Shown here one piece after another: positions 4,871 to 46,820 of a stretch of DNA of 46,820 nt. The stretch is from IMG/VR virus record IMGVR_UViG_3300002063_000002, positions 1-46,820 of that record; one strand, 5' to 3'. A program made the translations under genes and the position numbers. Below the pieces are notes generated by a model. That model saw only the letters and a list, made by a program, of their open reading frames with translations, ran no database searches and had not been told where the DNA came from. Origin of the DNA: a virus. The stretch's first letter is position 1; each line of letters begins with the position of its first letter.

Positions 4871-4880
4871 GCAATAATTT

Positions 4881-5333
4881 ATGCTAGATAAAATTAAACA
4901 GTTGTTGAATGTAAGAATTTATATTCGAATGGATGGTCCACCTGCTGACGGTGACCAAAGTTCAGAAAGAGTAACTCTTGATTCTTTTGATAAGATGGAG
5001 TTAAATAATCGCAGAAAGCAAGCTAATATAACTCGTACTGCGTTTATGGTTATGGAAACATCAACCTCAGACATTACACCTAAAGACCAGGATGAGCGCA
5101 TAGAATATGTTGGTCGTGTGGCAGACTACTATCGAGATATTGGTCAACAGCAAATAAAGCAGGTATACAACAATATAATGTTCCAGTTAGAGAAGCCAGA
5201 CAATTCTTCTCAAATGGATGCAACATTAAAAGGTTGTCTTATGGGCCTTAGAGCAATGGACAAAAATTATAAAATCCTTGTGGCCGAAAATAATGGTTAC
5301 AAATTTAATCAAACACAAAATGCACAAAATTAA
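4881..5333 (+). CDS. Hypothetical protein (head module)
   Basis: 150-aa ORF starting 11 nt after the portal stop. Confidence 0.6.
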   Translation: MLDKIKQLLNVRIYIRMDGPPADGDQSSERVTLDSFDKMELNNRRKQANITRTAFMVMETSTSDITPKDQDERIEYVGRVADYYRDIGQQQIKQVYNNIMFQLEKPDNSSQMDATLKGCLMGLRAMDKNYKILVAENNGYKFNQTQNAQN

Positions 5334-5928: not shown

Positions 5929-5940
5929 TAATAAATAACT

Positions 5941-6513
5941 ATGAATGATACAACAAATTTAATGGGTGGTAACCGAGTAGATGAACTTGGAAACCCAATT
6001 AGTATTCAACTACCTTCTGATGATATTTTGCAAGAAGATGTGTTAGAAGAAACTACTCAACCTGCGCCAGCGGGAATGGAGGGTTGGCCCCAAGCTGCAA
6101 TTGATGCTGTTATGGGTCTTTCTGAAAAAATGGAAGTTTTGTCTTCTGCTGTAGACCCAGATCGTTTAGCTAAAGCAAGTCGAGACAAACAAGCAGAAAA
6201 TGGAATCTTAGCTACTGTAGGTCTTTCTCTTTTTGATAATCGAGTATTGGTATCTGGTGTATTTAAGGGAAACGAATCTTTTGTAGATGATCTTGGTGTA
6301 AACCGAGTTCGTCAAATTCGTACTTACCAAGCTGCTAAAGACATGAAAGATGTAGTAGCTATGGATATTGCAAGTGACGTATTTCGAGAAACTCGAGAGG
6401 TGGTTCAAGCGGAAGTTATTGAAGAAGCAAATGGTGTCCATGGTAAGTTCCTTGTTGTAAAACTACCAGACGGTCGGGAAATTAAAATTGATCCAGAAAT
6501 GGTTAACATCTAA
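5941..6513 (+). CDS. Hypothetical protein (head module)
   Basis: 190-aa ORF with a tight junction to its neighbours. Confidence 0.65.
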   Translation: MNDTTNLMGGNRVDELGNPISIQLPSDDILQEDVLEETTQPAPAGMEGWPQAAIDAVMGLSEKMEVLSSAVDPDRLAKASRDKQAENGILATVGLSLFDNRVLVSGVFKGNESFVDDLGVNRVRQIRTYQAAKDMKDVVAMDIASDVFRETREVVQAEVIEEANGVHGKFLVVKLPDGREIKIDPEMVNI

Positions 6514-7827: not shown

Positions 7828-8838
7828 ATGAGTAAATTTACTGTATTCTCAACGGGCGCAATGAAAGACATTGTTCGAAACGCGGAAGTGCTTTTCAACA
7901 AATCTAAAGCTTCTATTGCTCCTGTAATCCGTAACTCAGGACTTGTGCGTGTAATGGATATTCCAGACATGTCAGGTCGTGAACGAGAGTTCTCTGAAGT
8001 AGACGGTCAGCTGTACGCTCCGAAAAAACGAGAGCATGAAGCTGCTAAGAAACGTGAAAACGTTCAAGGATTTACTAAAATTGGTTACCTTAACCGATTT
8101 GGTGATGAAACTGATATCACGTTTGAGGCCCGAAAATGGGGAAAATATCCTGAAATTATGAACGGGATTAAATCTCTAGGTAAAACTATTGTTAATCGAC
8201 TTGAGCTTGATGGTCAACACCGAATTGGATTTGGTCACGAAACATCTTATGTTGATTACGATGGTGACACAGTTGACGTAACTGTTGGAGATGGTTTGTC
8301 ATTGTTTAATACTCTTCACCGATTGAAAGGTACTACAAAAACTTACCGAAATACTCTTAACGGTAACGCACCACTTTCTATTTCTTCACTTGAAGCAATG
8401 GAAAAAATGCGTAAAGAAAATGCTGTTAACCAGTTTGGAGAAAAAATTACTCAAGGTGATGATATTCTTTGGACAACTGATGATCCAGCAACTACTAATG
8501 AAGCTCGGAACATTCTACGTTCTACAGCTCGACCAGAAGTTGATTTCTCAGCAGGTGTTTACAACTCTTATCAAGGGAAATACAAACACGTTGAACTTCC
8601 ATTAATTGCGACTGATGCCAAAGGTACTCATGACACAACTAAAGCGAAGTACTGGGGTGTTGCGAATTCTGACATGACTACTCTTTACTTGGGTATCAAC
8701 GAAGAACCGCACATGAAGAAACCAGAGAAAGAGGAGGACTTCCACACAGATACTATTACACTTGGTGCTCGAGGAGCATGGATGTATGTAACTGTTGGAG
8801 CCAACTGGATCGCTGCTTCAAAAGGAGACAACTCATAA
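7828..8838 (+). CDS. Major capsid protein (HK97-fold size class)
   Basis: 336 aa in the expected position after the scaffold and decoration genes. Preceded by a structured leader and followed by a hairpin. Confidence 0.7.
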   Translation: MSKFTVFSTGAMKDIVRNAEVLFNKSKASIAPVIRNSGLVRVMDIPDMSGREREFSEVDGQLYAPKKREHEAAKKRENVQGFTKIGYLNRFGDETDITFEARKWGKYPEIMNGIKSLGKTIVNRLELDGQHRIGFGHETSYVDYDGDTVDVTVGDGLSLFNTLHRLKGTTKTYRNTLNGNAPLSISSLEAMEKMRKENAVNQFGEKITQGDDILWTTDDPATTNEARNILRSTARPEVDFSAGVYNSYQGKYKHVELPLIATDAKGTHDTTKAKYWGVANSDMTTLYLGINEEPHMKKPEKEEDFHTDTITLGARGAWMYVTVGANWIAASKGDNS

Positions 8839-8842
8839 TTTG

Positions 8843-8888
8843 TCATCTCACTCTGCTCACCAACCGTTTGGTTGGGAGGCAGAGATGA
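8843..8888 (+). terminator. Imperfect stem-loop just after the capsid gene (partial terminator or RNA-stability element)
   Basis: TCATCTC...CCAACC-GTTT-GGTTGG...GAGATGA. No clear T-run follows. Confidence 0.35.
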
Positions 8889-8927
8889 TATTGCAAAATA
8901 TCTTATTACCAATATCCATTCATCTTT

Positions 8928-9215
8928 ATGAAATTAGTTATTCCAGACACACCGGAACGAATCAACAAATTAATTCAGCTTGCTGGGTTAAATGAACAAT
9001 TAAATGTTGGTCGTAAAACCGGAGATAAAAATGACCTACTGATTTTTAATTCAGGAGGGACACTGCTTTACGTTGAGACGGGAGCAGATGCGACAGACAC
9101 AGATGGTCTACCTTTTGCAGACGGAGCATTCTTTACGATGCCCGCTGATCACTTAACGGAATACAGCTTTGTTTCTGTAGGTGGACCAGGAGAGGTAAGA
9201 TTATTAGCACACTAA
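8928..9215 (+). CDS. Hypothetical protein (connector/head-completion size)
   Basis: 95-aa ORF in the late operon. Confidence 0.6.
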   Translation: MKLVIPDTPERINKLIQLAGLNEQLNVGRKTGDKNDLLIFNSGGTLLYVETGADATDTDGLPFADGAFFTMPADHLTEYSFVSVGGPGEVRLLAH

Positions 9216-9224
9216 ACCAAATAT

Positions 9225-9557
9225 ATGTCATCACCAAACATGAGCGTTCCTAGCGGAACAGCAGCTTCAGGGCCTGTGGCTACAGAAGCAAAACAAGATT
9301 TGATTATTGCACAGCAAGAAGCACTCTTGAAAGATACAAAGCTCCAAGACTACAAATTTGTAGACGGAGATGAATCAGGGGTCCCTGCATATTACGGTTT
9401 CCAAGACGTAGACGGTAATTTCTATATTTTGCGGTACGATGAAACTGGACCCTTAGTCGGTCGATATTTCTATGGTGCAGCAGGAGGTTACGCAGCTGCT
9501 TGGGCAGGTCGTGCGGGTCTCGCATATGATACGCCTGAAAACGTAACAGAATTATAA
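9225..9557 (+). CDS. Hypothetical protein (connector/head-completion size)
   Basis: 110-aa ORF in the late operon. Confidence 0.6.
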   Translation: MSSPNMSVPSGTAASGPVATEAKQDLIIAQQEALLKDTKLQDYKFVDGDESGVPAYYGFQDVDGNFYILRYDETGPLVGRYFYGAAGGYAAAWAGRAGLAYDTPENVTEL

Positions 9558-9573: not shown

Positions 9574-9993
9574 ATGACCACTAAATTTCGACAAAAATTC
9601 AATCCAATTGAGGGACGATTCAACTTAGTAACTGAAAGTTCTTTAAACTTTCGAGTGGCTAATACGTTCGTTGCGGGAGATATAGTGCGTCAATCAGCGC
9701 CAGGCTCTTTTGTCTTGGCTCTTGCTGATGCTAATACGAACATTAGCTCTTATGTTATTGAATCTGCTTCAGGTACTGAGTTTGCTCTTGCAGAGCGAGC
9801 ATCAGTTCTTCCGTTACGGAACGAAACAACAATTACTTTTGCAGCAGACGATCCGGTTTATTTGTCGGCATCTGAACCTGGAAAGGTTACTAACGTACAG
9901 CCTGCGCTGGGCGACTTTGTTGTACCTATCGGGCGTGCATTATCAGCAACAGAATTTGACTACACAGGTGTAGTTGGATTTAACACTATTTAA
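9574..9993 (+). CDS. Hypothetical structural protein
   Basis: 139-aa ORF in the late operon. Confidence 0.6.
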   Translation: MTTKFRQKFNPIEGRFNLVTESSLNFRVANTFVAGDIVRQSAPGSFVLALADANTNISSYVIESASGTEFALAERASVLPLRNETTITFAADDPVYLSASEPGKVTNVQPALGDFVVPIGRALSATEFDYTGVVGFNTI

Positions 9994-9997
9994 TAAT

Positions 9998-11833
9998 ATG
10001 TCATTTGTAACAATTTTTAGAAAAGATGAATACGAAGCGTATACCAATTTCGCATCTTTCCCAACAACTGGTAAAACAGACACAACATATCTTAACCAAG
10101 CTACTGGTGAGGTATACGAATGGAATGGTACTGCGTATGAAAAAATTGGTTCTTCAATCATCGATGTAGATGACTTGGTAACTTTAACGGGTCTAGCTGC
10201 AAACGCTAAAGACTTCGGTACTTTTACTGGAACCTTAATTGGAGACAATCTTACGTTAAAACCTATTCTGCAAGCGCTAGAATTATCAACTCAATCAAAC
10301 ATTAATTCAACACTTGCATCAGGAGGTATCTTGGTGGGTAATGCTTCCAATGTAGCTACTGCTGTAACTCCATCGGGAGATGTGACTATGACAAATGGTG
10401 GTGTGTTTACGCTGGGTAATACTGGGGTAACTGCTGGTACATACGGAGACGCAAACACTTTGGTGCAATTTACTGTTGACGCTAAGGGGCGAATAACTGG
10501 TACTACAGAGGTAGATATTGATCATGATGCTTTAACTAATTTTGTTGCTAATGAGCATATTGATCACTCTTCTGTGAGTGTGGGTACGGCTAATGATTCT
10601 GGTTTGGCTGGTGGTGGTGATCTTACTGCTACTCGAAATCTTAGCGTAGATATTGATGGTACAACTGATCTTGGAGCTACACCAGATGGGGCAGACTTTA
10701 TTATGTTATGGGATTCTTCAGCTGGGGTACTACGCAAGGTGTCAATTACTAATTTTAACTCTTCTAATGTAGGTAAATTAGATTACCAAGGTACATGGGA
10801 TGCAACTGCAAACACCCCTGCACTAGCAGATGGTGTTGGTACTAAAGGACACTACTATGTAGTAGGAACAGCAGGAGCCACAAATATTGACGGTATTACT
10901 GACTGGAAAGTTGGAGACTGGATTGTATTTAATGGAACTGTCTGGGAAAAAGCGGACCACACTGACCAAGTATCAAGTGTATTTGGACGAACAGGGGCTG
11001 TAGTAGCTGTGGCTGGAGATTACAATGCTTTGCAAATTACTTATGATAACACTACTTCTGGTCTTGTAGCTGTTACTACTCAGGCTGCTATTGATGAACT
11101 ACAAGCAATTTTTGATCAAATTAATCCTCAAGTAACAGTAACTGGTCATGGATTTGTTGCAGGGCAAGCGATCTATTTTGATGGTACAGATTGGTTATCA
11201 GGATTGGCGGACGATGGTGCTACTGTAGCGACTGCTGTAGTGGGATCTGTTGTTGATGCTAATACATTTACATTGGCGAAAAATGGTCAAATCGTGACTG
11301 TTGTTCCTGCTCCATTGCAGGGTACTGCTGTGACTTTAGCATCTGGAGACTTTATGTATGTTTCAGATACTGAAGCAGGTAAGTATGTAACTACACGACC
11401 AACAATATCAAACTTGATGGGTCAAATGGTTTCTGCTACACAAATGATGGTTCAAGGTGTTACTGCATTCTCTGGAGGTTCTGGCTCAGGGGGTGGAGGT
11501 GGAGGTGGGGTTGCTGCAACTACATTTGCAGCTCTTACAGATACACCAGCATCACTAGCAGGGCAAGGAGGAAAGGTTGTTGTGGTTAACGCAGCAGGAA
11601 ATGCATTAGAGTTTTTGACTGAAGTCAGAGACAGACAAACAGGTATTACTGGATCAGTGGTTACCTTACCTTCTGTTCCTACTGTTGGTCAACCTGTGGA
11701 CGTTATGCTAAATGGTCAAGTTATGGATTTGACTGGTGATTACACAATCTCAGGAGATACCATTACATTTTTAGCGCCATTTGCTCCTTTAATAGCAAGT
11801 GATATTATTAAAACTAATTACAGAACTTCTTAG
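9998..11833 (+). CDS. Tail-fibre-like protein 1
   Basis: Start at ATG 9998 (TAA-TAAT-ATG junction). Fibre-type motifs include GDVTMTNGGVFTLGNTGVTAGTYGDANTLVQFTVDAKGRITG and YQGTWDATANTPAL...GHYYVV...WKVGDWIVFNGTVWEK. It also has a G-run linker and a ~55-aa C-terminal module shared with gene 13963. Confidence 0.7.
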   Translation: MSFVTIFRKDEYEAYTNFASFPTTGKTDTTYLNQATGEVYEWNGTAYEKIGSSIIDVDDLVTLTGLAANAKDFGTFTGTLIGDNLTLKPILQALELSTQSNINSTLASGGILVGNASNVATAVTPSGDVTMTNGGVFTLGNTGVTAGTYGDANTLVQFTVDAKGRITGTTEVDIDHDALTNFVANEHIDHSSVSVGTANDSGLAGGGDLTATRNLSVDIDGTTDLGATPDGADFIMLWDSSAGVLRKVSITNFNSSNVGKLDYQGTWDATANTPALADGVGTKGHYYVVGTAGATNIDGITDWKVGDWIVFNGTVWEKADHTDQVSSVFGRTGAVVAVAGDYNALQITYDNTTSGLVAVTTQAAIDELQAIFDQINPQVTVTGHGFVAGQAIYFDGTDWLSGLADDGATVATAVVGSVVDANTFTLAKNGQIVTVVPAPLQGTAVTLASGDFMYVSDTEAGKYVTTRPTISNLMGQMVSATQMMVQGVTAFSGGSGSGGGGGGGVAATTFAALTDTPASLAGQGGKVVVVNAAGNALEFLTEVRDRQTGITGSVVTLPSVPTVGQPVDVMLNGQVMDLTGDYTISGDTITFLAPFAPLIASDIIKTNYRTS

Positions 11834-14926: not shown

Positions 14927-17900
14927 ATGGCACAAATACGAAAAAATTGGAACCTAGAGAAAGACAATGACCGAGTACCATTCGGGCTAACCAACTCTCT
15001 AACAGACCCGCTAGCAATCGCACTAGCAGACATAGAAAAGCAAAACAGTTTGCTTATCACTACTACCGGAGCACCGGCTGGGGAATACACACTACCTGAT
15101 TTAACAGGGGTGACTACAGCAGGTCAATTCCTCACAGTAGTAAACAATGACACATCTACAGATGCGTTTGTTGTCAATGAGAAAGAAATTGAAATCGGAC
15201 AGTCGTTCCGATTTGAGTGGGACGGTGATGCGTGGACCAATGGTGGTGGAGGTGCTGAGGACACATCTGACTTATTCAAGCAGATAAACGCTGGATGGGA
15301 GGCATCTGGTAGTGGCCCTAATGTTGCGGAACTAATTGATGGTGCAGACGATAAAGGAACATTTGTTCGTGTTGAATCTAATTCAGCATCACAGTGGGGA
15401 TTCCTAATAAACGACGCACCTGTTGCTCAAGGAGAACTTATCCGTATTGATTTTGACCTGGACCCGACAGCAACACAAACTGCTGCTATTCGTGGTGTAA
15501 TTGCTGGAGCAACAATCCGAGACATTGTAATAGACCCTACAGGAACAGACTTTGCGAGTATCTTTACTGAGAAGAATCCAGGTTCCCTTGTTATGCGAGA
15601 AGACCTATCATCTATTCATGACGAAACAGTAACGCTTGTTGCAGAGGCTCTTGTTGCTCTCCCACAAGGGTGGCAGTTCTACGCAGACTATGGGTTTGCG
15701 GGAGCAATAACTTCTGGTGCAGGTGCAACAGGAGGAATCAATCTACGAAGACTAGATTCAAACTATGATGCCGAGGAAGAAATTACTGGTCTTGCAACAT
15801 ACTACGAAGGGCACCGACAGCAAATGGCTGGTGTTCTACAGTCACGAATATCTGTTGGAACATCAGACGTTGATGGCTTTGAGGCTGCAACTATTTCAGA
15901 TGTGAGTACCACAGAACTTGGAATCATGCAGGTTGCGGTACCGACAGAAGGGACAACTCAAACATACAGCATAGAGTTAGAACTAGACCCTACAAAGGCT
16001 ATTACTATGGGTATTTATGTTACAGCGATGTCTGGTCCAACTGACCAAATCAGATTCTTGCTGGAAAACTCAAACCAACAAATCTCAAATGCGAATCCGT
16101 CTCCTCTTGTAGGTAACGGTATTGTTTCTGGTTCTGCGACTCTTACAAATCTATATGGAAACGTATTCCGATTTGATGCTGAGATTGAGTTCGTAAATGA
16201 TACATCAGACCGTCTTGTAGAGATTTTGCCTGTAGTTGGGCCAGTTCCATACCCAGGAGGAGACTTCTCTAACCTAACTGACTCTGTGAAACTAGTTTCA
16301 AAAATTACAACTGACTCAGATAAAAACGTTGAGTTTAATAATCTTGTTGGAGACTCTGAAATTGCAATCGGTGAATACAATGTAGATGTTGCCGTTCCAG
16401 GTGCAGCATTTGTACCAATTGATACAGGGATTGACCTAACTGATGCCTATAGAATTGAGGTGACTGTAGCAAACTCTTTAGGAGAAAACTCAAGTGCGGA
16501 CAGCGTGCTGATGTCTGAAATCATACTAGATGATGATGACGGAGGTATCTTGAAATGGGCTGGTAGTGCTTTCTTGAAGTTGCGAATAAACTCTGCCGAT
16601 ATTACATCGGGGATTATCCAAATATCATCACCTAATATTGTTAACCGACTGGTAACAAAAGTTAAGGTGACAAAGATTGTGGCCGTAACTGACACTGAAC
16701 CAAGCACACGTATTGGTGAAATGTTCTACGCTAAATCAGGTAGCACAGTAACAGGGTATCTACCTGTTACACCTGGAACTGTAGTTAGTGGAGCAACCAT
16801 GTACCCTATCTGGGCAGCAATGTACCCAGAGTTTGTATCAGGAGACGATATTGTATTCCCAGCAGATGTAGACGGGATGTTCCTACGTAACCTGGGTGGA
16901 GGTGCTGGAGCCGAAGGAGTATTCCAGGCAGAAGAAGTTGGACCACACACTCACGCATACACAGATAGACGAGGTACAGGATTTGTAGCACGAGGTAACA
17001 ACGGGAACACTGCTCGTAGTGGAAACTTTGCTACAGACTCAAAGACTTCATCGGCAAACGCTGGAACAGAAACACGACCAGACAACCGTGCATACCAACT
17101 CTACACAATCGTAGATTCATACCGAGAAATGTCTCAGGTAAACCTAGTGCCTGTAGAGGACTTGGTTAAATACGCAGCATACGGAGGAACAGACGATGAT
17201 AATGTATCAAGTGGAGAATACTTGCAGTTAGATGATATTTTTGCACCAGTTACTCCACACATTGATACTAATGGGCTTACATTTAACACAGCATCTCCGT
17301 ATAACCCGATTATTCCTAGAGATGGTATCTACTCTGTAGTAATCGGAATCACTTGTAGTTACGAAGATGGAGACCGAGAGTTCGGGTACAACCTAAAACT
17401 AGACGGTACAACAGTGGACCGACAGTTTACAGGTTTACACTCAACAACTGCATCTAATCACCTGACACTTCGATACACAGGACCATTGACCACAACATCA
17501 GAACTTGGCGCAGAGGCAACAGGACTTGGGAGTGATATTCGTATCACAAACACAGGTATCGAGATTATCGAATTGCCTTCAAAAACAGTAGTCAGCGCTA
17601 ATGATGTCGAAGTGGTAGGCGCACAGGGATCAGGACAAATCTTAGAACTAAATGGAGATGGAACTGCAAGTCCAGTGAACAAACGAACATTGCCAGCAGG
17701 ACAACTTATCGTTGGGACAATCAATGGAGACACTCTATTGGCTAACTACGGTGTTGGTGTACCATTCCACTTCCAAACAAGTGATGCTCCAGCAGGAGTG
17801 ACTATCACATCAGCGACAGACATCGGAACCATTATTGATGGAGATGCCATCTCTGGTCCTGGTCCGAAAGTAATCCCTGCATCAACACAGGGGTATATGA

Positions 17901-18391
17901 CCAAAGGTCTTTTGGGAAATGTGACTATCTTCTATACAACATCAGGATTTAATGGAGACCTGGTAGGTAATCAGGCTAATAATGCCATTCTAAGGCTAGA
18001 AGAAACTCTTGGTAACAAAGAGTTTTGGCTAAGCCGATTTTCTAACCGAACAGTTCTGGCAACATCAGATACATTTGAGTTTAGAGAAAACTCAACAGAC
18101 GGTGTTGATGGAGACGTTGTAGATTTCAGTAAAAAAGAGCAAAGAGGTGAAGTTCCTACACAAAACAACGTAGGTAACGGGGCTGATGTTAAAACAACTA
18201 CGTTCCCAACTCCGTTTCTAACTGTGCCTGTCGTAACCGCCACTGGTTTCAACAGCACTGGTAACGGGCAGGGAATTGTAATTACAATTGTAGGTATAAC
18301 TACCACAGGATTTACTTGGGTTGCTCACCGAAATGATGGTATTCCGTTTAGTAACTACGCAGGTCTACAATGGACTGCTAAAGAAATCTAA
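14927..18391 (+). CDS. Large tail fibre/spike protein with a phage tail-collar-like domain and an H-type-lectin-like C-terminus
   Basis: 1154 aa. IGEMFYA...GYLPV...MYPIWAAMYPEF...FPADVDGMFLRNLGGG...VGPHTHAY matches the tail-collar (MdpB-like) pattern. The last ~70 aa, TFPTPFLTVPVVTATGF...ITTTGFTWVAH...LQWTAKE, match the H-type lectin pattern. Confidence 0.7.
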   Translation: MAQIRKNWNLEKDNDRVPFGLTNSLTDPLAIALADIEKQNSLLITTTGAPAGEYTLPDLTGVTTAGQFLTVVNNDTSTDAFVVNEKEIEIGQSFRFEWDGDAWTNGGGGAEDTSDLFKQINAGWEASGSGPNVAELIDGADDKGTFVRVESNSASQWGFLINDAPVAQGELIRIDFDLDPTATQTAAIRGVIAGATIRDIVIDPTGTDFASIFTEKNPGSLVMREDLSSIHDETVTLVAEALVALPQGWQFYADYGFAGAITSGAGATGGINLRRLDSNYDAEEEITGLATYYEGHRQQMAGVLQSRISVGTSDVDGFEAATISDVSTTELGIMQVAVPTEGTTQTYSIELELDPTKAITMGIYVTAMSGPTDQIRFLLENSNQQISNANPSPLVGNGIVSGSATLTNLYGNVFRFDAEIEFVNDTSDRLVEILPVVGPVPYPGGDFSNLTDSVKLVSKITTDSDKNVEFNNLVGDSEIAIGEYNVDVAVPGAAFVPIDTGIDLTDAYRIEVTVANSLGENSSADSVLMSEIILDDDDGGILKWAGSAFLKLRINSADITSGIIQISSPNIVNRLVTKVKVTKIVAVTDTEPSTRIGEMFYAKSGSTVTGYLPVTPGTVVSGATMYPIWAAMYPEFVSGDDIVFPADVDGMFLRNLGGGAGAEGVFQAEEVGPHTHAYTDRRGTGFVARGNNGNTARSGNFATDSKTSSANAGTETRPDNRAYQLYTIVDSYREMSQVNLVPVEDLVKYAAYGGTDDDNVSSGEYLQLDDIFAPVTPHIDTNGLTFNTASPYNPIIPRDGIYSVVIGITCSYEDGDREFGYNLKLDGTTVDRQFTGLHSTTASNHLTLRYTGPLTTTSELGAEATGLGSDIRITNTGIEIIELPSKTVVSANDVEVVGAQGSGQILELNGDGTASPVNKRTLPAGQLIVGTINGDTLLANYGVGVPFHFQTSDAPAGVTITSATDIGTIIDGDAISGPGPKVIPASTQGYMTKGLLGNVTIFYTTSGFNGDLVGNQANNAILRLEETLGNKEFWLSRFSNRTVLATSDTFEFRENSTDGVDGDVVDFSKKEQRGEVPTQNNVGNGADVKTTTFPTPFLTVPVVTATGFNSTGNGQGIVITIVGITTTGFTWVAHRNDGIPFSNYAGLQWTAKEI

Positions 18392-18396
18392 TAATT

Positions 18397-19386
18397 ATGA
18401 ACTTCATTCAAACAGCAAAAACAAATATCGAGGATAACGGGGGAGACTGGACAGACTTCTTCGTGACCTACAAAGACCACATCGAGGTGCAAGCCAACGG
18501 TGGTACTTTGGTTCCTCGAGAACTAGGGGAGTTCAATCAAGGTTTGGCAGATGCTATGCCAGATGCCTCACCGGCAGTCATTGCTGCCACTCAGGCACAA
18601 GTTTCTACCGAAGTAGATAGTGTAGACGTTTCTGTTAATGTCGATGCTCTACAGGCAGAAATTGATGCAGCAGAGGCCGTTAATGACACTCAACAGACTC
18701 AAATCAACCAAAATATCTCCGATATTGAAAGTATTGAGACTGTCAATGATGATCAGGGTACAAGTATTTTGGCAAACACTGAATCAATTACAGACAATGC
18801 TACCGCAGATGCAGCGTCAGATGCAGCACAACAAGCAGAAGACGACCAACAACAGTTAGAGATTGACGAGAATTTAGTTCGAGCTAACAAAATTATATTT
18901 CAAGTATCAGGTCAGTGGCTATTAGACCCCAACGAGCAAAATGGTTGGGGAGTCATTGGTGTGTATGACAATACTAACTCGCAAGATCTTGGAAACGTAG
19001 GAGCAGAAATCAATAGACTAGCAGGAGGTATTTCATTCCCATTTGATGTACGAATTGATCGCCTGCAACTATGGCATCAAAACTCAAACAACTCTGCTCA
19101 GGCTTGGGGGTGGGTTATGACAAGGCAACAAAAAGTTGCAGGTTCAAACACACGAACTAACACTGTAGTGTTCGATGAAGTTGCAGATAATGCTGGAGTT
19201 GCCCCACGGAACTATCTGAGTACAGCAAATCAATTAACAGATATTGATACTTCGGAATTACCAAACAATGTGCTACCCGCAGGACACATATTAAACCTTG
19301 CGATAGCAGCACCCACAGCAGTAACAACAAACTACTACGCTCGTGTAATGAGTGGGTTCTTAGAATTAACAAGAGTAAACAACTAA
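18397..19386 (+). CDS. Fibre-associated coiled-coil protein
   Basis: 329 aa. Acidic Q/D/I-rich heptad-like N-terminal half and a globular C-terminal half. Confidence 0.55.
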   Translation: MNFIQTAKTNIEDNGGDWTDFFVTYKDHIEVQANGGTLVPRELGEFNQGLADAMPDASPAVIAATQAQVSTEVDSVDVSVNVDALQAEIDAAEAVNDTQQTQINQNISDIESIETVNDDQGTSILANTESITDNATADAASDAAQQAEDDQQQLEIDENLVRANKIIFQVSGQWLLDPNEQNGWGVIGVYDNTNSQDLGNVGAEINRLAGGISFPFDVRIDRLQLWHQNSNNSAQAWGWVMTRQQKVAGSNTRTNTVVFDEVADNAGVAPRNYLSTANQLTDIDTSELPNNVLPAGHILNLAIAAPTAVTTNYYARVMSGFLELTRVNN

Positions 19387-19391
19387 CGCTT

Positions 19392-19961
19392 ATGTCAATA
19401 CAATCAGTACAAAATCTAAAAACACAACTTGAAGAAAACGGAACAACTTTGTCTGACTTCATGTTGGAATCTACAGAAAACCTTATCACTGTGGTGTTGA
19501 TGTTCGCCAGCATTCAAGACGCAAACGTAGCAGCAGGACTAGAGGAAGTTTTACCAGAAGAAGAGCTGCAGGAAATTCAAGAAGAGTTATCAGAAGAAGT
19601 TGAGACTTCAAGTAGCACACAGACATACGAACTAGTTACCACAAGCAGTACTCCACAGCTAGTAGCCGAATTTGACCTATTAAAAGACGGAGAAGTTGGT
19701 ATTATGAAAGTGACAGGGGCAATTAAGTATACACAGTACAATCGGCTGTATCATTCAGTTGCAGAAAGAACAAGAGGAATCCAAAAGCAAGGAAGCACAC
19801 TGTCTCTAGGTCGCGCACGTTGGGGATTCCTGACGTGGAACAGGTACGCATTTTATCCGTATTACCAGATAAGAAACAACAAAGTTCAAATTTGGGTACG
19901 AGGTAGGAACGGTATAAAAGCCGAGTGCAAAATTATTCACAAATTACTATTAAAATATTAA
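19392..19961 (+). CDS. Hypothetical protein
   Basis: 189-aa ORF with a tight junction. Confidence 0.6.
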   Translation: MSIQSVQNLKTQLEENGTTLSDFMLESTENLITVVLMFASIQDANVAAGLEEVLPEEELQEIQEELSEEVETSSSTQTYELVTTSSTPQLVAEFDLLKDGEVGIMKVTGAIKYTQYNRLYHSVAERTRGIQKQGSTLSLGRARWGFLTWNRYAFYPYYQIRNNKVQIWVRGRNGIKAECKIIHKLLLKY

Positions 19962-20309: not shown

Positions 20310-20537
20310 ATGAATCTTGAAACAATCATCGACAATTTTGGAATTATCTTATCTCTTGTGGGGATTGTTTCGGTGTGGGCAGTAAATAATTACAAGATAA
20401 AAGAGCAAGGAATAGATATTGAAAAGCTAGAAGAGAAAGTGGAAAAACTTGAAGAAAAAGTTGATCCAGTATTGCTGGATATTCGAGAAAGGCTAGCTGG
20501 AATTGAAGCGATTCTGAGGCTTGGTAAAAACGACTAA
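20310..20537 (+). CDS. Small membrane protein (holin- or spanin-like candidate)
   Basis: 75 aa. One N-terminal TM helix (FGIILSLVGIVSVWAV), then a coiled coil (EKLEEKVEKLEEKV). Lies next to the endolysin. Confidence 0.45.
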   Translation: MNLETIIDNFGIILSLVGIVSVWAVNNYKIKEQGIDIEKLEEKVEKLEEKVDPVLLDIRERLAGIEAILRLGKND

Positions 20538-20538
20538 T

Positions 20539-21129
20539 ATGAAAATAGAAAACCCATTAATTTATGTAGTACTGTTCGTTGCAGCATGTATTGCTTTTCC
20601 GCCAGTCATTGTATTGGGTTTTTTCTATCCCATATGGAAGCATTTTGTTTTACCTTTACTTAAATTACAAAGGCCAGACTACTCTCTTAAAAAACATTTC
20701 TTTCCTATATTTAAAGTGTTCGCTTTAATATTAGATCAAGCAGCGAACGCTGTTGCAGGTGAACTAGGAAACGATTTGAATATCATTATGAAAGATGGTG
20801 ATTATCATCCAGAAGCATATAAGTACGGTAAGCCATACGACACGATATCTGAGGTTACTGGTGTTAACGAGCAAAGAGGCGTGTTAACTAAATTTGGATT
20901 ATTCTTTACTAAGATGCTTGGTATCGTATTGAATGATAATCATTCTATTTTGGCTGTCTCTTATACACATCCACAAGAGTATAACTATGGGGCACCAATC
21001 TTAATGTGGGTAAACTTCAGGGGGATGTTTGGCGTTGACAATTTAATATATATACAGTGTGCAATGTCGTTGAAGAACGGTAACTACTTAAATACGTGTA
21101 GAAACACAAAATTCAGACAGTGTGGCTAG
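20539..21129 (+). CDS. Membrane protein of the lysis region; its 3' end overlaps the tmRNA gene
   Basis: Start at ATG 20539 (TAA-T-ATG junction). N-terminal TM helix (LIYVVLFVAACIAFPPVIVLGFF). The last 36 codons (21021-21129) coincide with the tmRNA 5' region. Confidence 0.55.
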   Translation: MKIENPLIYVVLFVAACIAFPPVIVLGFFYPIWKHFVLPLLKLQRPDYSLKKHFFPIFKVFALILDQAANAVAGELGNDLNIIMKDGDYHPEAYKYGKPYDTISEVTGVNEQRGVLTKFGLFFTKMLGIVLNDNHSILAVSYTHPQEYNYGAPILMWVNFRGMFGVDNLIYIQCAMSLKNGNYLNTCRNTKFRQCG

Positions 21130-21356
21130 CCCATTTATGTCTCTGTTGGTAGGAAACACAGTTTCAGTCTAACAGCAGCACGCACACGATCCTGTCGGAG
21201 TTGGTGCGTCCTGAGTGATATCCGACAATCTTTTTTTCTGTAGAGAATTGAAACATGTTTGGTAGAACTTTAAACTACCTGGTGGAAGCACTCCTTATCA
21301 TTGTCGAGCATTGTATATAGTTATTTTGGACGGGGGTTCGATTCCCCCCATCTCCA
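21021..21356 (+). ncRNA. ssrA: tmRNA (transfer-messenger RNA), one-piece, 336 nt, CCA not encoded
   Basis: The 7-bp acceptor stem is GGGGATG (21021-27) with CATCTCC (21349-55), including a G3:U70 wobble and discriminator A. T-arm GGGGG-TTCGATT-CCCCC (21332-48). 5' GGCGTTGAC D-analogue. P2 helix is 21049-56 with 21312-19. An H-type pseudoknot is formed by 21176-85/21204-13 and 21193-99/21221-27. Confidence 0.85.
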
Positions 21357-21370
21357 CAAAATATGATAAT

Positions 21371-21400: not shown

Positions 21401-22816
21401 ATGGATAAAAACAGTAATAAAATTGTGAACGCCATTGTTTGGCTTCATAGAAAGATTCATTCAGAAAAGGGGCGTGCTTTGATTGCACGATATTACCCAT
21501 CTATTGAGTCTTATTTTAACGGGTCTAAGATTGCCAATTACCTTGATGTCGCTGAATGGTTTTATGGTGTATCCAAAAACCTTGGTGTAGCTGAAGATGC
21601 TCTTGCAGAAGATATTGCGGAAATGGAAGCAGCTGGTTCTCAGGAATTACCTGCAATGTCTACGCGACTACCAAAAAGAGATTTTGATGATTATGCTGAA
21701 ATTATTCGTAGTCGAATGCATAAGATTCAACATCAGGGTCGTATTGGTACTTGTGCTGCACATACGCATGAAAATATGCTACAAGGTGTGCAACGTAATC
21801 AGGTAGCAGTAGGTGATGGAAATATTAATCGTGAATCTTTTCATATTGATATCAATTTCTTGTATCGAAACTACCGTTTTGCTGGACAACGACCAGGGCA
21901 AGATACTGGTACATATGTGGGGCGACAAATACAAGCGATTATTAATGAGGGATTACTTGTACGTGTAACTGAGCCAATCCTGAACCGAAAATATTTAAAA
22001 GAACTTGACGAGTCTAAGGTGTTTGATGGTTCAAATGAGATGATGAGAATCTTCCCATACGAGTCTGTAGAAATGATTACGAATAACTTAGATGCGTTTG
22101 AACGAAAGATGGCTTCTATTGATGTAAGTCAATATGCAGTACAGCTATCTACTGATGTATTCCGACCAGGTTACTGGGGAGTAGATTTAATTACTAGGAT
22201 ATTTGGTAAACTATCAGGTCGACACTCTGTCGGTATTGTTGCTGAAAAAATAGATGGGGAAAGCGTATGTGTACTTTATAGTAAAGATAAACGACTAACT
22301 GATCCTCGAGTTTGTTACATGATGGACTCTGGTGATGGTAAGTTAAAACCGGTATCGTTTGATTTCTTGAAGAAAGCTAACGTGTTCTTGCGGGTAGTTA
22401 AACTACGAGCTAACGCTACTGATGTTGTTGCACCTAGTGAAAAGCGAAATGTTGTTGCACCTAAAAAACAGGTGATCGTAAACCCTAACGTGGTTGCACG
22501 AATTGAACCATTTGCTGCTACACGAAATAACCAAGGTGGTCCAGCAGTGGTTGAAGTTCAACGATTCTTGAATTGGTGGCGTGATGAATATGCTGATTCT
22601 ATTATTCGAGAAACAGGTTCAAACATGCTACCACTAGAGGTCAATGGTAAATACAACGCCTATGTAACGGTTGGAGTAGATAAATTCTCTAAGTGGTCTA
22701 AGGCAAGAAACTTGGGAACTTTCGGTTCTGTAAGTGAGTCCCAACTAATGCAATGGAACGGTAAGTACTGGGGTCAACGATGTATTGCGGTTGCAAAAAT
22801 GCTTTTAAACAAGTAA
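21401..22816 (+). CDS. Putative endolysin: papain-like cysteine peptidase plus C-terminal peptidoglycan-binding-like domain
   Basis: 471 aa. HQGRIGTCAAHTH resembles the Q-x5-C catalytic segment of C1-type peptidases, and GRHSVGIV is the candidate catalytic His. The C-terminus VVEVQRFLNWW...LEVNGKYNAYVTVGVDKFSKW fits the PG_binding_1 pattern. Confidence 0.55.
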   Translation: MDKNSNKIVNAIVWLHRKIHSEKGRALIARYYPSIESYFNGSKIANYLDVAEWFYGVSKNLGVAEDALAEDIAEMEAAGSQELPAMSTRLPKRDFDDYAEIIRSRMHKIQHQGRIGTCAAHTHENMLQGVQRNQVAVGDGNINRESFHIDINFLYRNYRFAGQRPGQDTGTYVGRQIQAIINEGLLVRVTEPILNRKYLKELDESKVFDGSNEMMRIFPYESVEMITNNLDAFERKMASIDVSQYAVQLSTDVFRPGYWGVDLITRIFGKLSGRHSVGIVAEKIDGESVCVLYSKDKRLTDPRVCYMMDSGDGKLKPVSFDFLKKANVFLRVVKLRANATDVVAPSEKRNVVAPKKQVIVNPNVVARIEPFAATRNNQGGPAVVEVQRFLNWWRDEYADSIIRETGSNMLPLEVNGKYNAYVTVGVDKFSKWSKARNLGTFGSVSESQLMQWNGKYWGQRCIAVAKMLLNK

Positions 22817-30381: not shown

Positions 30382-30924
30382 ATGGGACTAACTAAACAAG
30401 AAGTACTAAAACTACAACAGCAAGGTGTATCCAACGAACGAATTCGTGCGTTTGCCAAAGAGCGATCTGCGGAATCTGAAAAAGGATTCTTTGGTAAAGC
30501 TGCTGATTTTAATAAATCAGTAAGTGAAGGGATAGGAGAGTTCAGCGAAGGATTTGTGAAAGGAGGAATAGATCTAGGAAGACAAACACTTGGAGCACTA
30601 GATAAAATAGGTGAGTTCGGATTAGACAATACTGTGGGGAGAATAACAGGTAAGTCTGTAAAAGAAACACGAGATGACTTTGGCGGAGAAGGTAAATTCA
30701 TTCAAAACATAAGACAAAGCGAAACACCTGAATCACTACAACGTGAAGGAGGTCTTCAGAAATTCGGAGGATTCGCTGCGGAAATTGGAGGACTAGCTGC
30801 TCCTATCACGAAAATAAGTAAGGCTACAACTGCGATACAAGGACTCAAGGCTTTCCAGAACGAGTCTACTGATGCAAACCAACAAGAACTTACTCAAAGG
30901 AGTAGCTGGTGTCCTTTCTGGTAA
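30382..30924 (+). CDS. Internal virion protein, N-terminal part (possibly fused to the next ORF)
   Basis: 180 aa, Gly-rich helical. Overlaps the next ORF by 53 nt, with that ORF in the +1 frame. Confidence 0.5.
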   Translation: MGLTKQEVLKLQQQGVSNERIRAFAKERSAESEKGFFGKAADFNKSVSEGIGEFSEGFVKGGIDLGRQTLGALDKIGEFGLDNTVGRITGKSVKETRDDFGGEGKFIQNIRQSETPESLQREGGLQKFGGFAAEIGGLAAPITKISKATTAIQGLKAFQNESTDANQQELTQRSSWCPFW

Positions 30925-31885
30925 AGGTACTCGAGCTATTGATGCTATATTAGAAAACCCAGTAGAGGCTATGCGTGGTTTGCGAGACGATGGATCAGAT
31001 ATTCTTACTCAAAGCGTAAAAGAAATATCTGATGGCGCTGAGTTGTTACGAGAAAAAGCAGCACGAGAATTCCGAGTCGCCGCTGATGCATTGCCAAAAA
31101 CAGCTATCCCAATTAAGAATGTAATTGCAGACACAGATGCGCTACTAGAAGACTTTGGGTTACTATTTAAAAAAGGAGAAAACGGAAAGTCACTTGATGC
31201 TGATCTATCACTATTTGATAAAAACGAAGCAGGGCGACTACAAGAAGCATACGATGTAATGAAGTCATGGTCAGATACATCAGCTCAAGGCCTACACACG
31301 TTAAGTCGTAAGCTACAGAATTTCACTAAACCAGGTGAGCAGTCACCAGAACTTAATGCTGTTATTGGTAACATGTCTCGAAATGTGCTGGACACGCTTG
31401 GAAATGCTGTGCCTGACGCTCGAGTTATGCTTGATAAGTACAAAGCTGCCCATGAAACCTTAGACGCTCTCATGCAAGAATTTCGTGTCTCAGGGTACAA
31501 GGGAGGTCAAACAGCTGCAGAAGAGATTAAAACAGGTACTAAAGTAAACAACTTGTTTACCGGTGAAAAAACATTAGCTACTGAAGCGTTAGACAAAGTA
31601 GCTGACGCAACAGCAATTCAAGCGCGAGAAGCTGGTCGTCAAATGAATGAACTAGTATCTCGAGCGAATGCCTCTATCGGAGAAACTGTTGGAGGATTAC
31701 TTAAATCAGTGATCAGCCCACGAATGATTGGAGAAATAACTGCCAAAACTGGGATTGCCAAAAACCAGATTGATGAAATTATATCTGCATTCGAAAATGA
31801 GTTCCTCAAAGCAGGAGCCACAACTGAGCCGTTAGTGCGTGAGTTCTTGGAATCAATGAACATCATCGAAGGAGATTCAGAATAA
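30872..31885 (+). CDS. Internal virion protein, C-terminal part (possibly fused to the previous ORF)
   Basis: 337 aa with the same compositional style as 30382-30924. This frame is open from 30815. Confidence 0.5.
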   Translation: MQTNKNLLKGVAGVLSGKGTRAIDAILENPVEAMRGLRDDGSDILTQSVKEISDGAELLREKAAREFRVAADALPKTAIPIKNVIADTDALLEDFGLLFKKGENGKSLDADLSLFDKNEAGRLQEAYDVMKSWSDTSAQGLHTLSRKLQNFTKPGEQSPELNAVIGNMSRNVLDTLGNAVPDARVMLDKYKAAHETLDALMQEFRVSGYKGGQTAAEEIKTGTKVNNLFTGEKTLATEALDKVADATAIQAREAGRQMNELVSRANASIGETVGGLLKSVISPRMIGEITAKTGIAKNQIDEIISAFENEFLKAGATTEPLVREFLESMNIIEGDSE

Positions 31886-32240: not shown

Positions 32241-33107
32241 TTATATAGTAATCGCTTTTTCTGCCGCTTTTTTAATTAACACCTTACCACTACTGTCGGT
32301 TAACCAACGAGAAAGTGCTAATGTTTTTCTGTAGCCAGCAAATGCCTTGGTCACACTTGGGATAACACGAAGTTCATACGCCGCCTTCGTTTTATCTAAC
32401 CTAAGAATCCAGTGTATTTTTGGCTTCATTCCAGTAAGGCTAGTGAACCCTTTACTGTAAGCTGCCACCTGCATTGCGTAAGTATCCTTATCAATTGAAT
32501 TACTTGTTTTGAAATCAATAACTGCCAATTTGTTATCTATCAAACATAAGAAGTCCAGAGTACCACCAACCTTAACCGATGGTACAGCCACCAATAGCTC
32601 ACTCCAGATAGGAGTAATCTCAGGATGTTCTGCAAAGAAACGTTGAGCACTGTATGCAATTGCATAGAGTCTCGGATCAGATTCAATGTCTTTCTTTTTT
32701 ATGTACGCCTCAATGAATGGAGTGATATCTAACGGCCTTTCTCGTTTTTCAATCCACTCATTCAAGTAATCCTCAATAACCTCGTGACCTTTGGTACCTA
32801 TATCCCCAGCATCTTTAAACGTTTCATCGTGAACTAACGTTGCACGTTTCAAGACTTCGGGGGTGATAGGTGCACCCCTGTCTACAAATTTAGCAATATA
32901 TTCAGTAGCTTGATTAGCCGCCCACTTTTTTAAGTGAGGAGAACTGATTATATTGAGCGGTTGTGTTACGGATATGTAGAGTTCATCTCTCGGTTTGTAC
33001 CGGTAGAAGTGAGCCCACTTAGTGTGCTCGGCTACTATCATATCTTTTGGAATCAGCTCTCGAATTTTTTTACGAATTGCCAGAGCTGATTGGTCCGCCA
33101 CCTGCAT
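32241..33107 (-). CDS. PD-(D/E)xK (RecB/Cas4-like, DUF2800-type) exonuclease
   Basis: 288 aa. GTKGHEVIEDY, then GGTLDFLCLIDNKLAVIDFKTS (D...D-x-K) and YAMQVAAYSKG (QxxxY). Confidence 0.7.
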   Translation of the reverse strand: MQVADQSALAIRKKIRELIPKDMIVAEHTKWAHFYRYKPRDELYISVTQPLNIISSPHLKKWAANQATEYIAKFVDRGAPITPEVLKRATLVHDETFKDAGDIGTKGHEVIEDYLNEWIEKRERPLDITPFIEAYIKKKDIESDPRLYAIAYSAQRFFAEHPEITPIWSELLVAVPSVKVGGTLDFLCLIDNKLAVIDFKTSNSIDKDTYAMQVAAYSKGFTSLTGMKPKIHWILRLDKTKAAYELRVIPSVTKAFAGYRKTLALSRWLTDSSGKVLIKKAAEKAITI

Positions 33108-34270: not shown

Positions 34271-35245
34271 ATGAATACATTCAACCTACAAGAGTACTTG
34301 ATCTCTCGACACATTACCAAAGACTTCGGAATTACTATGGATGGCAATCGTATTGCTATACCTGTACACGATGTTGAAGGTAATTTTTTATTTAACAAAT
34401 ATCGTAAGCATCCTGATGATACATCAGATGCCCCTAAATACACTTATGAAAAAGGAACAACAGCACAATTATTTAATGCACATCGTCTCGACCCCAAAAA
34501 CGAAAGTGTTTATATCTACGAGGGGGAGTTCGATTGCCTTTTGGCAGCATCTCAAGGATATAATGCCGTCTCATCTACAGGAGGAGCTGCTACTTTCAAA
34601 GAAGAATGGGCACAATGGTTAGTAAAACAAGGGTACAAAGAATTTAATTTTTACTTTGATAATGACGAAGCAGGATTAACTGCTATGTCGCGACACGCAT
34701 GGAAACTCCGAGAAATTTTACCTACTATTACAATAAACACTATCGCTCGTAGATCATCTGAGGGGAAAAAAGTAAAAGATGTATCTGATGCAGAAGGTTG
34801 TAAGAGTGTAACGGTAATTCAATCAGTGCTAAAGTGGGAAGGTAGTTATAAAAAATACTTAGATGATGTAATTTACCACATAGCACAACATAACCATATC
34901 GGATTACCAGATATGGGAATGGAGAAGTTACGAGAACTTTGTTACGCAGAATACCAGCAATCAAAGAAACCAAAAACAACACAGGGCTATGATGGGCCGG
35001 ATCTTATTAGTGCAATGAAACAGGTACCCATTGAAGAGTATCTAACAGGTTGGAATCACGAGTTAAAAATGAATTGTATATGGCACAACGAAAAGACTCC
35101 ATCAATGCGTTTATATAAAGAGAACAATAAAGTGTACTGCTTTGGTTGTCAAAAGTCAGGAGATGTAATTGATGTGGTCGCTCAATTACAATGTAATGGA
35201 GATACAAGTGAGGCCTTAAAATTTATGAAGTCGAAACATAAATAA
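34271..35245 (+). CDS. DnaG-type DNA primase with TOPRIM first and the CHC2 zinc finger at the C-terminus
   Basis: 324 aa. PKYTYEKGTTAQLF (DnaG KY motif), YIYEGEFDCLL (TOPRIM Glu), FYFDNDEAG (DxD). The C-terminus VPIEEYL...CIWHNEKTPSMRLYKENNKVYCFGCQKSGDVIDV is a zf-CHC2 with C269, H272, C290 and C293. Confidence 0.8.
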   Translation: MNTFNLQEYLISRHITKDFGITMDGNRIAIPVHDVEGNFLFNKYRKHPDDTSDAPKYTYEKGTTAQLFNAHRLDPKNESVYIYEGEFDCLLAASQGYNAVSSTGGAATFKEEWAQWLVKQGYKEFNFYFDNDEAGLTAMSRHAWKLREILPTITINTIARRSSEGKKVKDVSDAEGCKSVTVIQSVLKWEGSYKKYLDDVIYHIAQHNHIGLPDMGMEKLRELCYAEYQQSKKPKTTQGYDGPDLISAMKQVPIEEYLTGWNHELKMNCIWHNEKTPSMRLYKENNKVYCFGCQKSGDVIDVVAQLQCNGDTSEALKFMKSKHK

Positions 35246-46773: not shown

Positions 46774-46820
46774 GGTATTTAGTTAGTTGCTATATGGTAT
46801 TTAGTTAGTTGCTATATGGT
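46774..46820. repeat. 22-bp tandem direct repeat array, right part; contig-end copy of nt 1-46
   Basis: Units at 46774-46795 and 46796-46817, then GGT. 46775-46820 is letter-for-letter identical to 1-46. Confidence 0.95.

Follow-up and report, generated by a model that had tools for sequence, protein, structure and literature searches.

A divergent tmRNA gene in a 47-kb phage genome, with probable distant relatives in marine Bacteroidota phages

The tmRNA gene and its locus

The DNA analysed here, referred to as the window, is IMG/VR virus record IMGVR_UViG_3300002063_000002 over its full 46,820 nucleotides (nt). It carries a gene for a one-piece transfer-messenger RNA (tmRNA, ssrA) that runs on the plus strand from the 5′ G1 to the discriminator A (21021..21356), between genes for putative membrane proteins and a gene for an endolysin-like peptidase. 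A sequence-only reading of the same DNA had proposed a full-length, one-piece tmRNA gene at this position, to be checked with ARAGORN and with Infernal, and both came out positive. The sole ARAGORN gene call in the 46,820-base window is a tmRNA at 21021-21357 (+), and Infernal, run with all of Rfam, found a single above-threshold match, to RF00023 at 21021-21359, spanning model positions 1-374 with 68.9 bits and E 7e-25. The gathering score of RF00023 is 47 bits, which places the RNA in the family by its full-model covariance score, in agreement with ARAGORN.

The gene recurs in other assemblies. The 471-amino-acid (aa) protein encoded downstream was found on three further contigs from at least two samples: a JGI contig from a macroalgal surface in Botany Bay (L001), an ENA contig of 47,399 bp (L002) and a Logan contig (L003). 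All three carry the tmRNA, flanked by the same phage genes as in the window, and L001 differs from it by one single-nucleotide polymorphism (SNP). This amounts to 1 SNP in 337 nt, compared with 1.07% divergence over the 9.9-kb aligned block. Recurrence in three other assemblies excludes a host gene or a chimera.

L001 and L002 also revealed an artefact in the window, 50 nt upstream of the tmRNA, that the sequence-only reading had overlooked. Positions 20954..20971 (+) are an exact 18-nt match, with 0.01 expected by chance, to CTGTCTCTTATACACATC, which we take to be the Nextera/Tn5 mosaic-end adapter. In place of the adapter, L001 (9250-9562) and L002 (1-328) have about 313 nt of phage DNA that hold the true 3′ end of a membrane-protein gene, a 46-aa open reading frame (ORF; L001 9329-9469) and a 14-bp terminator. 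In L001 the membrane-protein gene encodes 156 aa and has its own stop codon (8833-9303). In the window its remnant (20539..20953, +) is fused through the artefact as far as 21129, and the resulting ORF (20521-21129) enters the tmRNA by 109 nt. Since L001 and L002 carry the stretch that is missing from the window, this overlap is an assembly artefact and not biological; an untrimmed sequencing adapter can thus produce a false gene/RNA overlap in public viral contigs. The order of the locus, as read from L001 and L002, is a 75-aa gene, the 156-aa gene, the 46-aa ORF, the terminator, about 100 nt, the tmRNA, 44 nt and the 471-aa gene. The terminator, a 14-bp GC-rich stem followed by a T-run (L001 9483-9517), lies about 100 nt upstream of the tmRNA and would insulate it from upstream transcription. 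The tmRNA shares its strand with the structural genes.

An adapter-mediated misjoin only 50 nt from the gene could be taken to mean that misassembly has joined a host gene to phage DNA. We regard this as hardly credible: two adapter-free assemblies run without a break from phage genes through the tmRNA to phage genes, which contradicts it, and the tmRNA resembles those of phages and not those of bacteria. A second gap peculiar to the window, of 143 nt at 30862/3, is filled in both L001 and L002 (L002 10232-10373) and breaks up a 549-aa ORF, leaving 30382-30924 and 30872-31885 as separate ORFs. Either the assembly went wrong here too, or the window represents a genuine deletion variant.

Structure of the RNA and its tag reading frame

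The two ends of the RNA form the tRNA-like domain. In a base-by-base check, the 5′ strand of the acceptor stem, GGGGAUG (21021..21027, +; GGGGATG in the DNA), formed 7 of 7 pairs with CAUCUCC (CATCTCC; 21349-21355), the third a G:U wobble and the other six Watson-Crick. The discriminator A21356 follows, and after it CAA, showing that CCA is not encoded. A 7-bp tRNA-Ala-like acceptor stem with a G3:U70 wobble and a discriminator A is as expected for RF00023. Across 17 phage tmRNAs every pair of this stem is kept (100% paired), and pairs 5 and 6 show compensatory changes. The T-arm, GGGGG/CCCCC around the T-loop UUCGAUU, occupies 21332..21348 (+; pairing checked) and is preceded by the conserved GGAC; its positions are invariant or covary in alignment A1. 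The D-loop analogue, GGCGTTGAC (GGCGUUGAC; 21031..21039, +), has UUGAC in place of the usual UUCGAC, the form carried by the bacterial tmRNAs that we compared. The phage comparison set was selected on UUGAC, and the GGCGUUGAC variant is therefore shared by every member through selection. GGAC, T-arm, T-loop and D-analogue together also conform to RF00023, with GGCGUUGAC as the D-analogue variant.

The core of helix P2, UAUAUACA with UGUAUAUA (21049..21056 / 21312-21319, +), forms 8 of 8 pairs (TATATACA/TGTATATA). It is extended by 21057-62/21306-11, which contribute 2 Watson-Crick pairs, 2 G·U pairs, one mismatch and 1 further Watson-Crick pair. A perfect 8-bp core with extensions corresponds to the long P2 of RF00023, and the unconstrained minimum-free-energy fold (-100 kcal/mol, z = -2.6) recovers it along with the acceptor stem and T-arm. 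Covariation of P2 and of the UGGUGGA stem described below was discarded for the MAFFT alignment, which was out of register from unequal stem lengths (47-49% paired), and both stems were instead read directly. The acceptor stem with its third-pair G:U and discriminator, the absence of an encoded CCA, the T-arm, the 5′ D-analogue and the long P2 had all been put forward in the sequence-only reading, and all of them withstood the check.

The mRNA-like domain contains two stem-loops, a pseudoknot and a further stem-loop. Stem-loop 1 (21115-19/21138-42, inner 21122-25/21131-34, +) and stem-loop 2 (21143-49/21169-75, inner 21153-57/21161-65, +) were checked pair by pair and are present in the minimum-free-energy fold; stem-loop 2 also aligns with helix 5 of the Rfam model. 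An H-type pseudoknot follows at 21176..21227 (+), where the PK2 helix of Rfam aligns. Its stem 1 (21176-85/21204-13) has 9 Watson-Crick pairs and one C·C mismatch and its stem 2 (21193-99/21221-27) has 7 of 7 pairs, as proposed earlier apart from the mismatch. PK3 and PK4 are represented only by a tentative hairpin and by a stem-loop, GGUAG/CUACC followed by UGGUGGA (21261..21286, +), that is the signature of a phage-only tmRNA lineage.

The tag reading frame was approached through a rule derived from 78 distinct tmRNA resume contexts. U-A-(A/G)-N-N (U-A-R-N-N) directly precedes the resume codon in almost all 78, consistent with experiments showing A86 to be a ruler that determines the frame four nucleotides farther downstream (PMC2481249). 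The rule is obeyed at four sites of the phage RNA, each followed by an ORF of at least 6 codons (range 6-22), and their accessibility was expressed as the mean P(unpaired), the probability of being unpaired, over the motif and the resume codon. Candidate c (21089..21129, +; UAAAU before ACG, peptide TCRNTKFRQCG) has the highest value of the four, 0.83, and its stop codon, UAG (21127-29), is located at the apical loop of stem-loop 21115-42, an arrangement also seen in helix 5 of E. coli. Candidate a (21099..21173, +; UAGAA before ACA, peptide TQNSDSVASPFMSLLVGNTVSV, stop UAA at 21171-73) has a P(unpaired) of 0.52, and candidate b (from 21127, stop at 21150-52, +; UAGCC before CAU, peptide HLCLCW) has 0.50. 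The fourth site is the one selected by ARAGORN (from 21170, stop at 21241-43, +; UAACA before GCA, peptide AARTRSCRSWCVLSDIRQSFFL, P(unpaired) 0.03), which the program gives as ARTRSCRSWCVLSDIRQSFFL at gene positions 158-223, overlapping the pseudoknot. GCA (Ala) is the resume codon only at this base-paired site.

On this basis we would favour candidate c over a and b, and these over the ARAGORN site; by position and predicted accessibility, UAAAU before ACG, leading to TCRNTKFRQCG, appears to be the most canonical. The ARAGORN tag was rejected as the true tag, because base pairing of about 97% is predicted across its U-A-R-N-N and resume codon and because it overlaps the pseudoknot, and it is kept as a minor alternative only; its position relative to the UGGUGGA element parallels that in the phage lineage. 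The sole SNP relative to L001, C21130T, is a hairpin-loop change that is synonymous for frame a and lies outside the ORF in frame c, and so does not discriminate between these two frames. Two likenesses of frame a were also rejected. Homology of its peptide to the tags of the phage lineage (F.SLL..V.V) was equalled in score by 1051 of 2000 shuffles, and a resemblance to host-like GNTSYAMAA tags, with 13 of 30 nt matching by eye, was not significant.

A perfect tRNA-like domain joined to a non-canonical, ambiguous tag region might point to a decoy or inhibitor, in which the tRNA-like domain would bind SmpB (and AlaRS and EF-Tu) with no tagging, and titration of SmpB would block or redirect host trans-translation. 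PK1 is missing, as such a role would allow, and there is a parallel in mycobacteriophage DS6A, whose gene contains little beyond a tRNA-like domain; a molecule of that kind strongly inhibits tmRNA, perhaps via SmpB titration (PMC4131195). We nevertheless find this explanation quite unlikely, as about 270 nt of structured interior (P2, stem-loops, pseudoknot and lineage motif) that a pure decoy would not need have been kept, the resume-codon context rule is still obeyed at four sites, and the relatives in the phage lineage have clear, long ORFs ending in ...AA.

Relatives among bacteria and phages

As a member of RF00023, the phage RNA shares with bacterial SsrA the 7-bp acceptor stem with G3:U70, the discriminator A, GGAC, the 5-bp T-arm and 7-nt T-loop, the D-loop analogue, a long P2 closing a pseudoknot-rich ring, and U-A-R-N-N ahead of short ORFs. 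It differs in size and score, at 336 nt and 68.9 bits compared with about 350-400 nt and 168-224 bits (the range of four bacterial tmRNAs), and in having UUGAC for UUCGAC, PK1 reduced to a hairpin, no ...LAA tag and no encoded CCA. It is also encoded by a virus in which smpB was not detected.

More than 120 bacterial species, from many phyla, have the exact 29-mer found at the 3′ end of the RNA; none of the bacterial tmRNAs that share it is similar overall, the global identity of about 65% being background. With the 29-mer spread over unrelated phyla and identity at background, a bacterial donor cannot be named. The 29-mer also bears on the idea that the gene is part of an integration module, serving as attP or rebuilding the host ssrA once the phage has inserted, as happens with temperate elements that target tmRNA genes. 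Such genes are well-known integration targets, the final 29 nt match the tmRNA 3′ end of all of these species exactly, and some integrase-bearing flavobacterial phages carry a tmRNA copy (PMC11590407). However, bacteria of unrelated phyla share the 29-mer, which reflects the conserved T-arm and acceptor and not a host site, and the phage gene is full length and not a 3′ fragment. Furthermore, no integrase, recombinase or SmpB domain was found in the ORFs screened (51 products with Pfam, which covered 12 of the 18 ORFs longer than 250 aa as well as smaller ORFs; the other six with PHROGs). An integration role is accordingly very improbable.

GenBank phages contained no similar DNA, the exact 19-mer at the 5′ end was not found in IMG/VR, and protein-based searches for the locus with both neighbours drew a blank. 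Among 5.8 billion proteins, the 471-aa and 386-aa products of neighbouring genes matched only themselves. Matches to the 3′ end of the tmRNA occur in 179 GenBank phage records, and many of these are annotated as tmRNAs. A structure-shaped pattern, GGGGNNGNNNGGNNTTGAC ... GGTTCGANTCC, matched 37 IMG/VR contigs, and ARAGORN predicted tmRNAs of 319-344 nt in 30 of them. Most of these 30, like the tmRNA of Cellulophaga phage Calle_3, encode long tags, ANAQIEANMNKVFSLLGEEVAVAA being one example. A pattern scan of metagenomes gave five matches, of which two were loci already known, two were false positives on tRNA-Sec and the fifth was a more distant family member.

Three features that lie outside the search pattern connect the window to this group: the UGGUGGA element, the extent of the alignment to a family hidden Markov model (HMM), and the 3′ trailer. 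The stem-loop with UGGUGGA is present in the window, in Calle_3 and in 20 of the 30 viral tmRNAs from IMG/VR, but 0 of 112 bacterial tmRNAs have it. The family HMM aligns to the window over 118 nt (21240-21357) with 35.2 bits, a small score margin; on bacterial tmRNAs it covers about 38 nt in most and 52 nt in the best (L099). The lack of an encoded CCA is common to the window and the lineage, and the CAAAAU 3′ trailer to the window and a subset of the lineage. The window RNA therefore has both the stem-loop with UGGUGGA and homology reaching beyond the T-arm and acceptor. It lacks the 18-31-codon ORF ending in ...AA that the lineage carries just upstream of UGGUGGA; the equivalent ORF ends in ...SFFL and starts in a stem. 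No proteins were common to the window and the fetched flanks of the lineage contigs.

From these motifs we conclude that the tmRNA is probably a distant member of a phage-borne lineage in marine Bacteroidota phages, and that the long ...AA tag of the lineage would have been lost, or altered beyond recognition, in the window RNA. The lineage appears to be confined to phages and is characterized by a length of 320-350 nt, a GGNNUUGAC D-analogue, the UGGUGGA stem-loop, no encoded CCA and tags of 18-31 residues; no published description of it was found in the literature searched. With the tmRNAs of Calle_3, phi40:1 and phi38:1 and those from IMG/VR, the window RNA shares the length range, the GGNNUUGAC D-analogue, the A/U-rich-loop stem-loop with UGGUGGA, the unencoded CCA, the CAAAAU trailer (in a subset), a tag that is not of host type, and a low Rfam score (86.6 bits for Calle_3). 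It differs from this group in having no unambiguous 18-31-codon ...AA ORF of the ANAQIEANMNKVFSLLGEEVAVAA kind, only its 3′ third aligns by HMM, and peptide similarity is at chance level. The genomes differ as well. The flavobacterial phages Calle and Panino carry a tmRNA (PMC8776804, PMC11590407), and Calle phages are 73-kb podoviruses with 20 tRNAs (PMC8776804); the window phage has 47 kb and no tRNA. In the crAss-like phage cr50_1, a RAGATH-22 RNA (857-1023, 155.6 bits) was seen about 450 nt upstream of a permuted tmRNA and a tRNA-like element.

Divergence of this degree is also what might be seen in a decaying passenger, an ssrA copy acquired from a phage or host by recombination and now drifting with no current function. 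Its Rfam score is the lowest among the tmRNAs compared, it has no canonical tag, and the window contains no tRNA, unlike Calle, where 20 tRNAs accompany the tmRNA (PMC8776804). But the helices of the tRNA-like domain and P2 are all intact, with no disrupting mismatch, and a single loop SNP separates the Australian from the other samples, compared with about 1% divergence in neighbouring genes. The lineage-specific motifs are retained and a terminator bounds the tmRNA upstream. Taken together, we judge decay without function to be decidedly unlikely.

Phage tmRNAs are already well documented. A 2014 survey listed them in eight mycobacteriophages, Bacillus phage G and DS6A (PMC4131195), and by 2021 they had been called in 402 of 18,146 phage genomes (2.3%), mostly larger than 100 kb (PMC9004378), which agrees with the earlier statement that they occur in a minority of phages, mostly large ones. 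That statement had gone on to treat the mid-size genome as noteworthy; this is in fact precedented, tmRNAs having been called in phages of 34-51 kb, among them the 50.7-kb Salinibacter phage SRUTV-1 (PMC9004378 Table S1). The mycobacteriophage tmRNAs (Bxz1 cluster, Wildcat) and the DS6A gene with only a tRNA-like domain are likewise ssrA genes of lytic phages, and their role is still conjectural, with precedent for both rescue and inhibition hypotheses (PMC4131195). They differ from the window RNA in having Actinobacteria hosts, genomes mostly of 78-156 kb and tags nearer to canonical (...YAAVGA), and they show no sequence similarity to it beyond the T-arm and acceptor. What is distinctive here is the combination of an aberrant tag region, a small tRNA-less genome and phage-specific motifs.

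The phage genome and a possible role for the RNA

The genes around the tmRNA had been described as a lysis cassette with holin-like membrane genes upstream and an endolysin downstream. The upstream part of this description holds to the extent that both proteins have hydrophobic segments. The 75-aa protein (20310..20537, +) has an N-terminal hydrophobic segment and a coiled-coil tail by hydropathy and is a holin-like candidate only, its sole match being PHROG 1863, of unknown function; the 156-aa protein gave no family match. Neither result is evidence for a holin. The downstream part fared better. The 471-aa protein (21401..22816, +) resembles a papain-like cysteine peptidase, with a probable C-terminal peptidoglycan-binding domain, and is endolysin-like. 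It gave no Pfam, PHROG or PDB sequence match itself, but a full HMMER search against 1.84 billion representatives turned up seven homologues, 27-32% identical to it, and Q112, C118 and H275 are invariant in all eight proteins. PG_binding_1 was detected in homologues, at 25.3 bits in P0004 (Pfam cut-off 23) and below the cut-off in three more. A single-sequence AlphaFold model was unusable (predicted local distance difference test, pLDDT, 32). With the 8-sequence alignment the mean pLDDT was 57.6, with a core at 75-87, and the 39 best PDB matches in Foldseek were all of the papain family (cathepsin B, Cwp84, falcipain), although weak (E 4e-3 to 0.1, none at or below 0.001). The invariant Q/C/H residues, PG_binding_1 in the homologues and the weak papain-family fold match make a cysteine-peptidase endolysin plausible, and the protein may represent an unclassified family of such enzymes. 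'Lysis cassette' is thus a reasonable label, not a demonstrated one.

The earlier description of the window as a phage genome of about 47 kb is supported by both its genes and its ends. PHROGs, applied to six large ORFs, identified a terminase, a tail protein, a protein of unknown function, an exonuclease, a primase and a helicase. The large terminase (1283-2818) is about 37% identical to siphophage terminases; the tail protein lies at 9974-11833, the PD-(D/E)XK exonuclease at 32241-33107 (-), the primase at 34271-35245 and the helicase at 37652-38902 (-). Three further genes on the minus strand encode a staphylococcal-nuclease-like (SNase-like) protein (40294-40707), a YopX-family protein (40719-41159) and a homing-endonuclease-associated-repeat protein (101-592); a YopX-family protein has been reported from Cellulophaga phage Nekkels too. 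ARAGORN found no tRNA gene in the window. The first 30 bases are repeated at 46774 and both ends lie within a 22-nt tandem repeat, which indicates that the contig is a closed circle of about 47 kb and a complete genome. The repeat, GTATTTAGTTAGTTGCTATATG, occurs at 1-77 and 46772-46820, with about 5-6 copies when circularised, and may function as an origin or iteron array, or in packaging. Other tandem repeats were noted at 43991-44047 (25-nt unit x2.3, near the start of the early-gene region) and at 5488-5560 (21-nt unit x3.5, within ORF 5278-5928). Aligned blocks of the window and L001 are 96-99% identical, except for 77% at 18622-19556 / 14927-18391 (L001 6911-7845 / 3576-6170). A large ORF in this divergent block encodes 1154 aa in one variant and 864 aa in the other, the 1154-aa protein having a weak H-type lectin match, and the block is probably a host-range (tail-fibre) cassette.

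Shine-Dalgarno-like motifs (AGGA/GGAG/GAGG) precede only 2 of the 46 genes, and the upstream regions are A/T-rich. Scarce Shine-Dalgarno motifs with A/T-rich upstream regions are typical of Bacteroidota and their phages, and the count of 2 in 46 points to a host of Bacteroidota type. The terminase is nearest to those of Gammaproteobacteria siphophages, despite the Bacteroidota-like gene starts. A Bacteroidota origin, as suggested earlier, is therefore a reasonable assignment for the host, on gene starts and lineage motifs, whereas the bacterial source of the tmRNA was not placed.

Considering the scores, structure and relatives together, we think it fairly likely that the gene encodes a genuine, phage-borne one-piece tmRNA, a divergent member of the marine-Bacteroidota-phage lineage, that would act in ribosome rescue. 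The terminator about 100 nt upstream in L001 and L002 suggests that it would form an independent transcription unit. The transcript would be trimmed by host RNase P and by 3′ exonucleases, the host CCA-adding enzyme would complete its 3′ end, and host AlaRS would alanylate it via G3:U70. Host SmpB, which would be required because no smpB gene was found in the phage, would together with EF-Tu bring the RNA to ribosomes stalled on truncated mRNAs. Such mRNAs should abound as host transcripts are degraded during infection, and the phage itself encodes an SNase-like nuclease and an exonuclease. The ribosomes freed in this way may then serve phage protein synthesis; the earlier suggestion that ribosome rescue is manipulated late in infection is conjectural as to timing. 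Hypotheses on the function of phage tmRNAs have precedent (PMC9004378).

Several observations weigh against this reading. A score of 68.9 bits is low for a tmRNA, and is the lowest Rfam score among those compared. The only relatives are in a distant phage lineage, and covariation specific to the RNA is limited to the acceptor stem and T-arm. The pseudoknot barely exceeds chance: with a criterion of two H-type stems totalling at least 16 Watson-Crick pairs, one mismatch being allowed, 6.8% of dinucleotide shuffles match it (p about 0.07), and when only perfect stems are considered, 25% equal it. PK1 is not recognisable, its place being held only by a 5-bp hairpin (21067-71/21076-80); tmRNA pseudoknots are reported to be replaceable (PMC2481249). 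None of the four candidate tags ends in the usual hydrophobic ...AA, and the frame is not fixed. The sequence-only reading, in which every hallmark could be read off the DNA, went too far on these two counts, the tag frame and PK1. Finally, a sigma-70 promoter scan upstream of the tmRNA gave nothing above chance and no convincing promoter; TTGATC-N18-TATAAC and a motif resembling TAnnTTTG, seen by eye in L001, are weak leads only.

If the tmRNA does act in rescue, the peptide it adds would be a non-host tag, unlike the ...YALAA degron of host type. As the tag is not a host-type degron, rescue by this RNA is probably uncoupled from proteolysis, or coupled to it in a different way. A stronger version holds that the degron was lost on purpose, allowing stalled ribosomes to be rescued without ClpXP-type proteolysis or host tmRNA to be out-competed for SmpB. 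The RNA would then be a counter-defence or takeover device, typical of the whole phage-only lineage, and the mRNAs concerned would be cleaved, for example, by host abortive-infection RNases or by phage nucleases. We put this version forward as conceivable, if unlikely.

The value of the finding lies in part in the simplicity of the phage. To our knowledge, no role has been shown for any phage tmRNA, despite twenty years of cataloguing. A small, probably lytic phage with no detected tRNAs or smpB, and with what appears to be a non-degron tag, would offer a compact system for studying tmRNA function. It would serve the question of whether a phage tmRNA rescues ribosomes, retags proteins or blocks the host pathway, and that of which sequence rule fixes the frame when four U-A-R-N-N sites compete. 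The set of motifs found in marine phage tmRNAs and absent from bacterial ones provides a handle for finding and classifying such RNAs, and it may prove more useful than this single gene.

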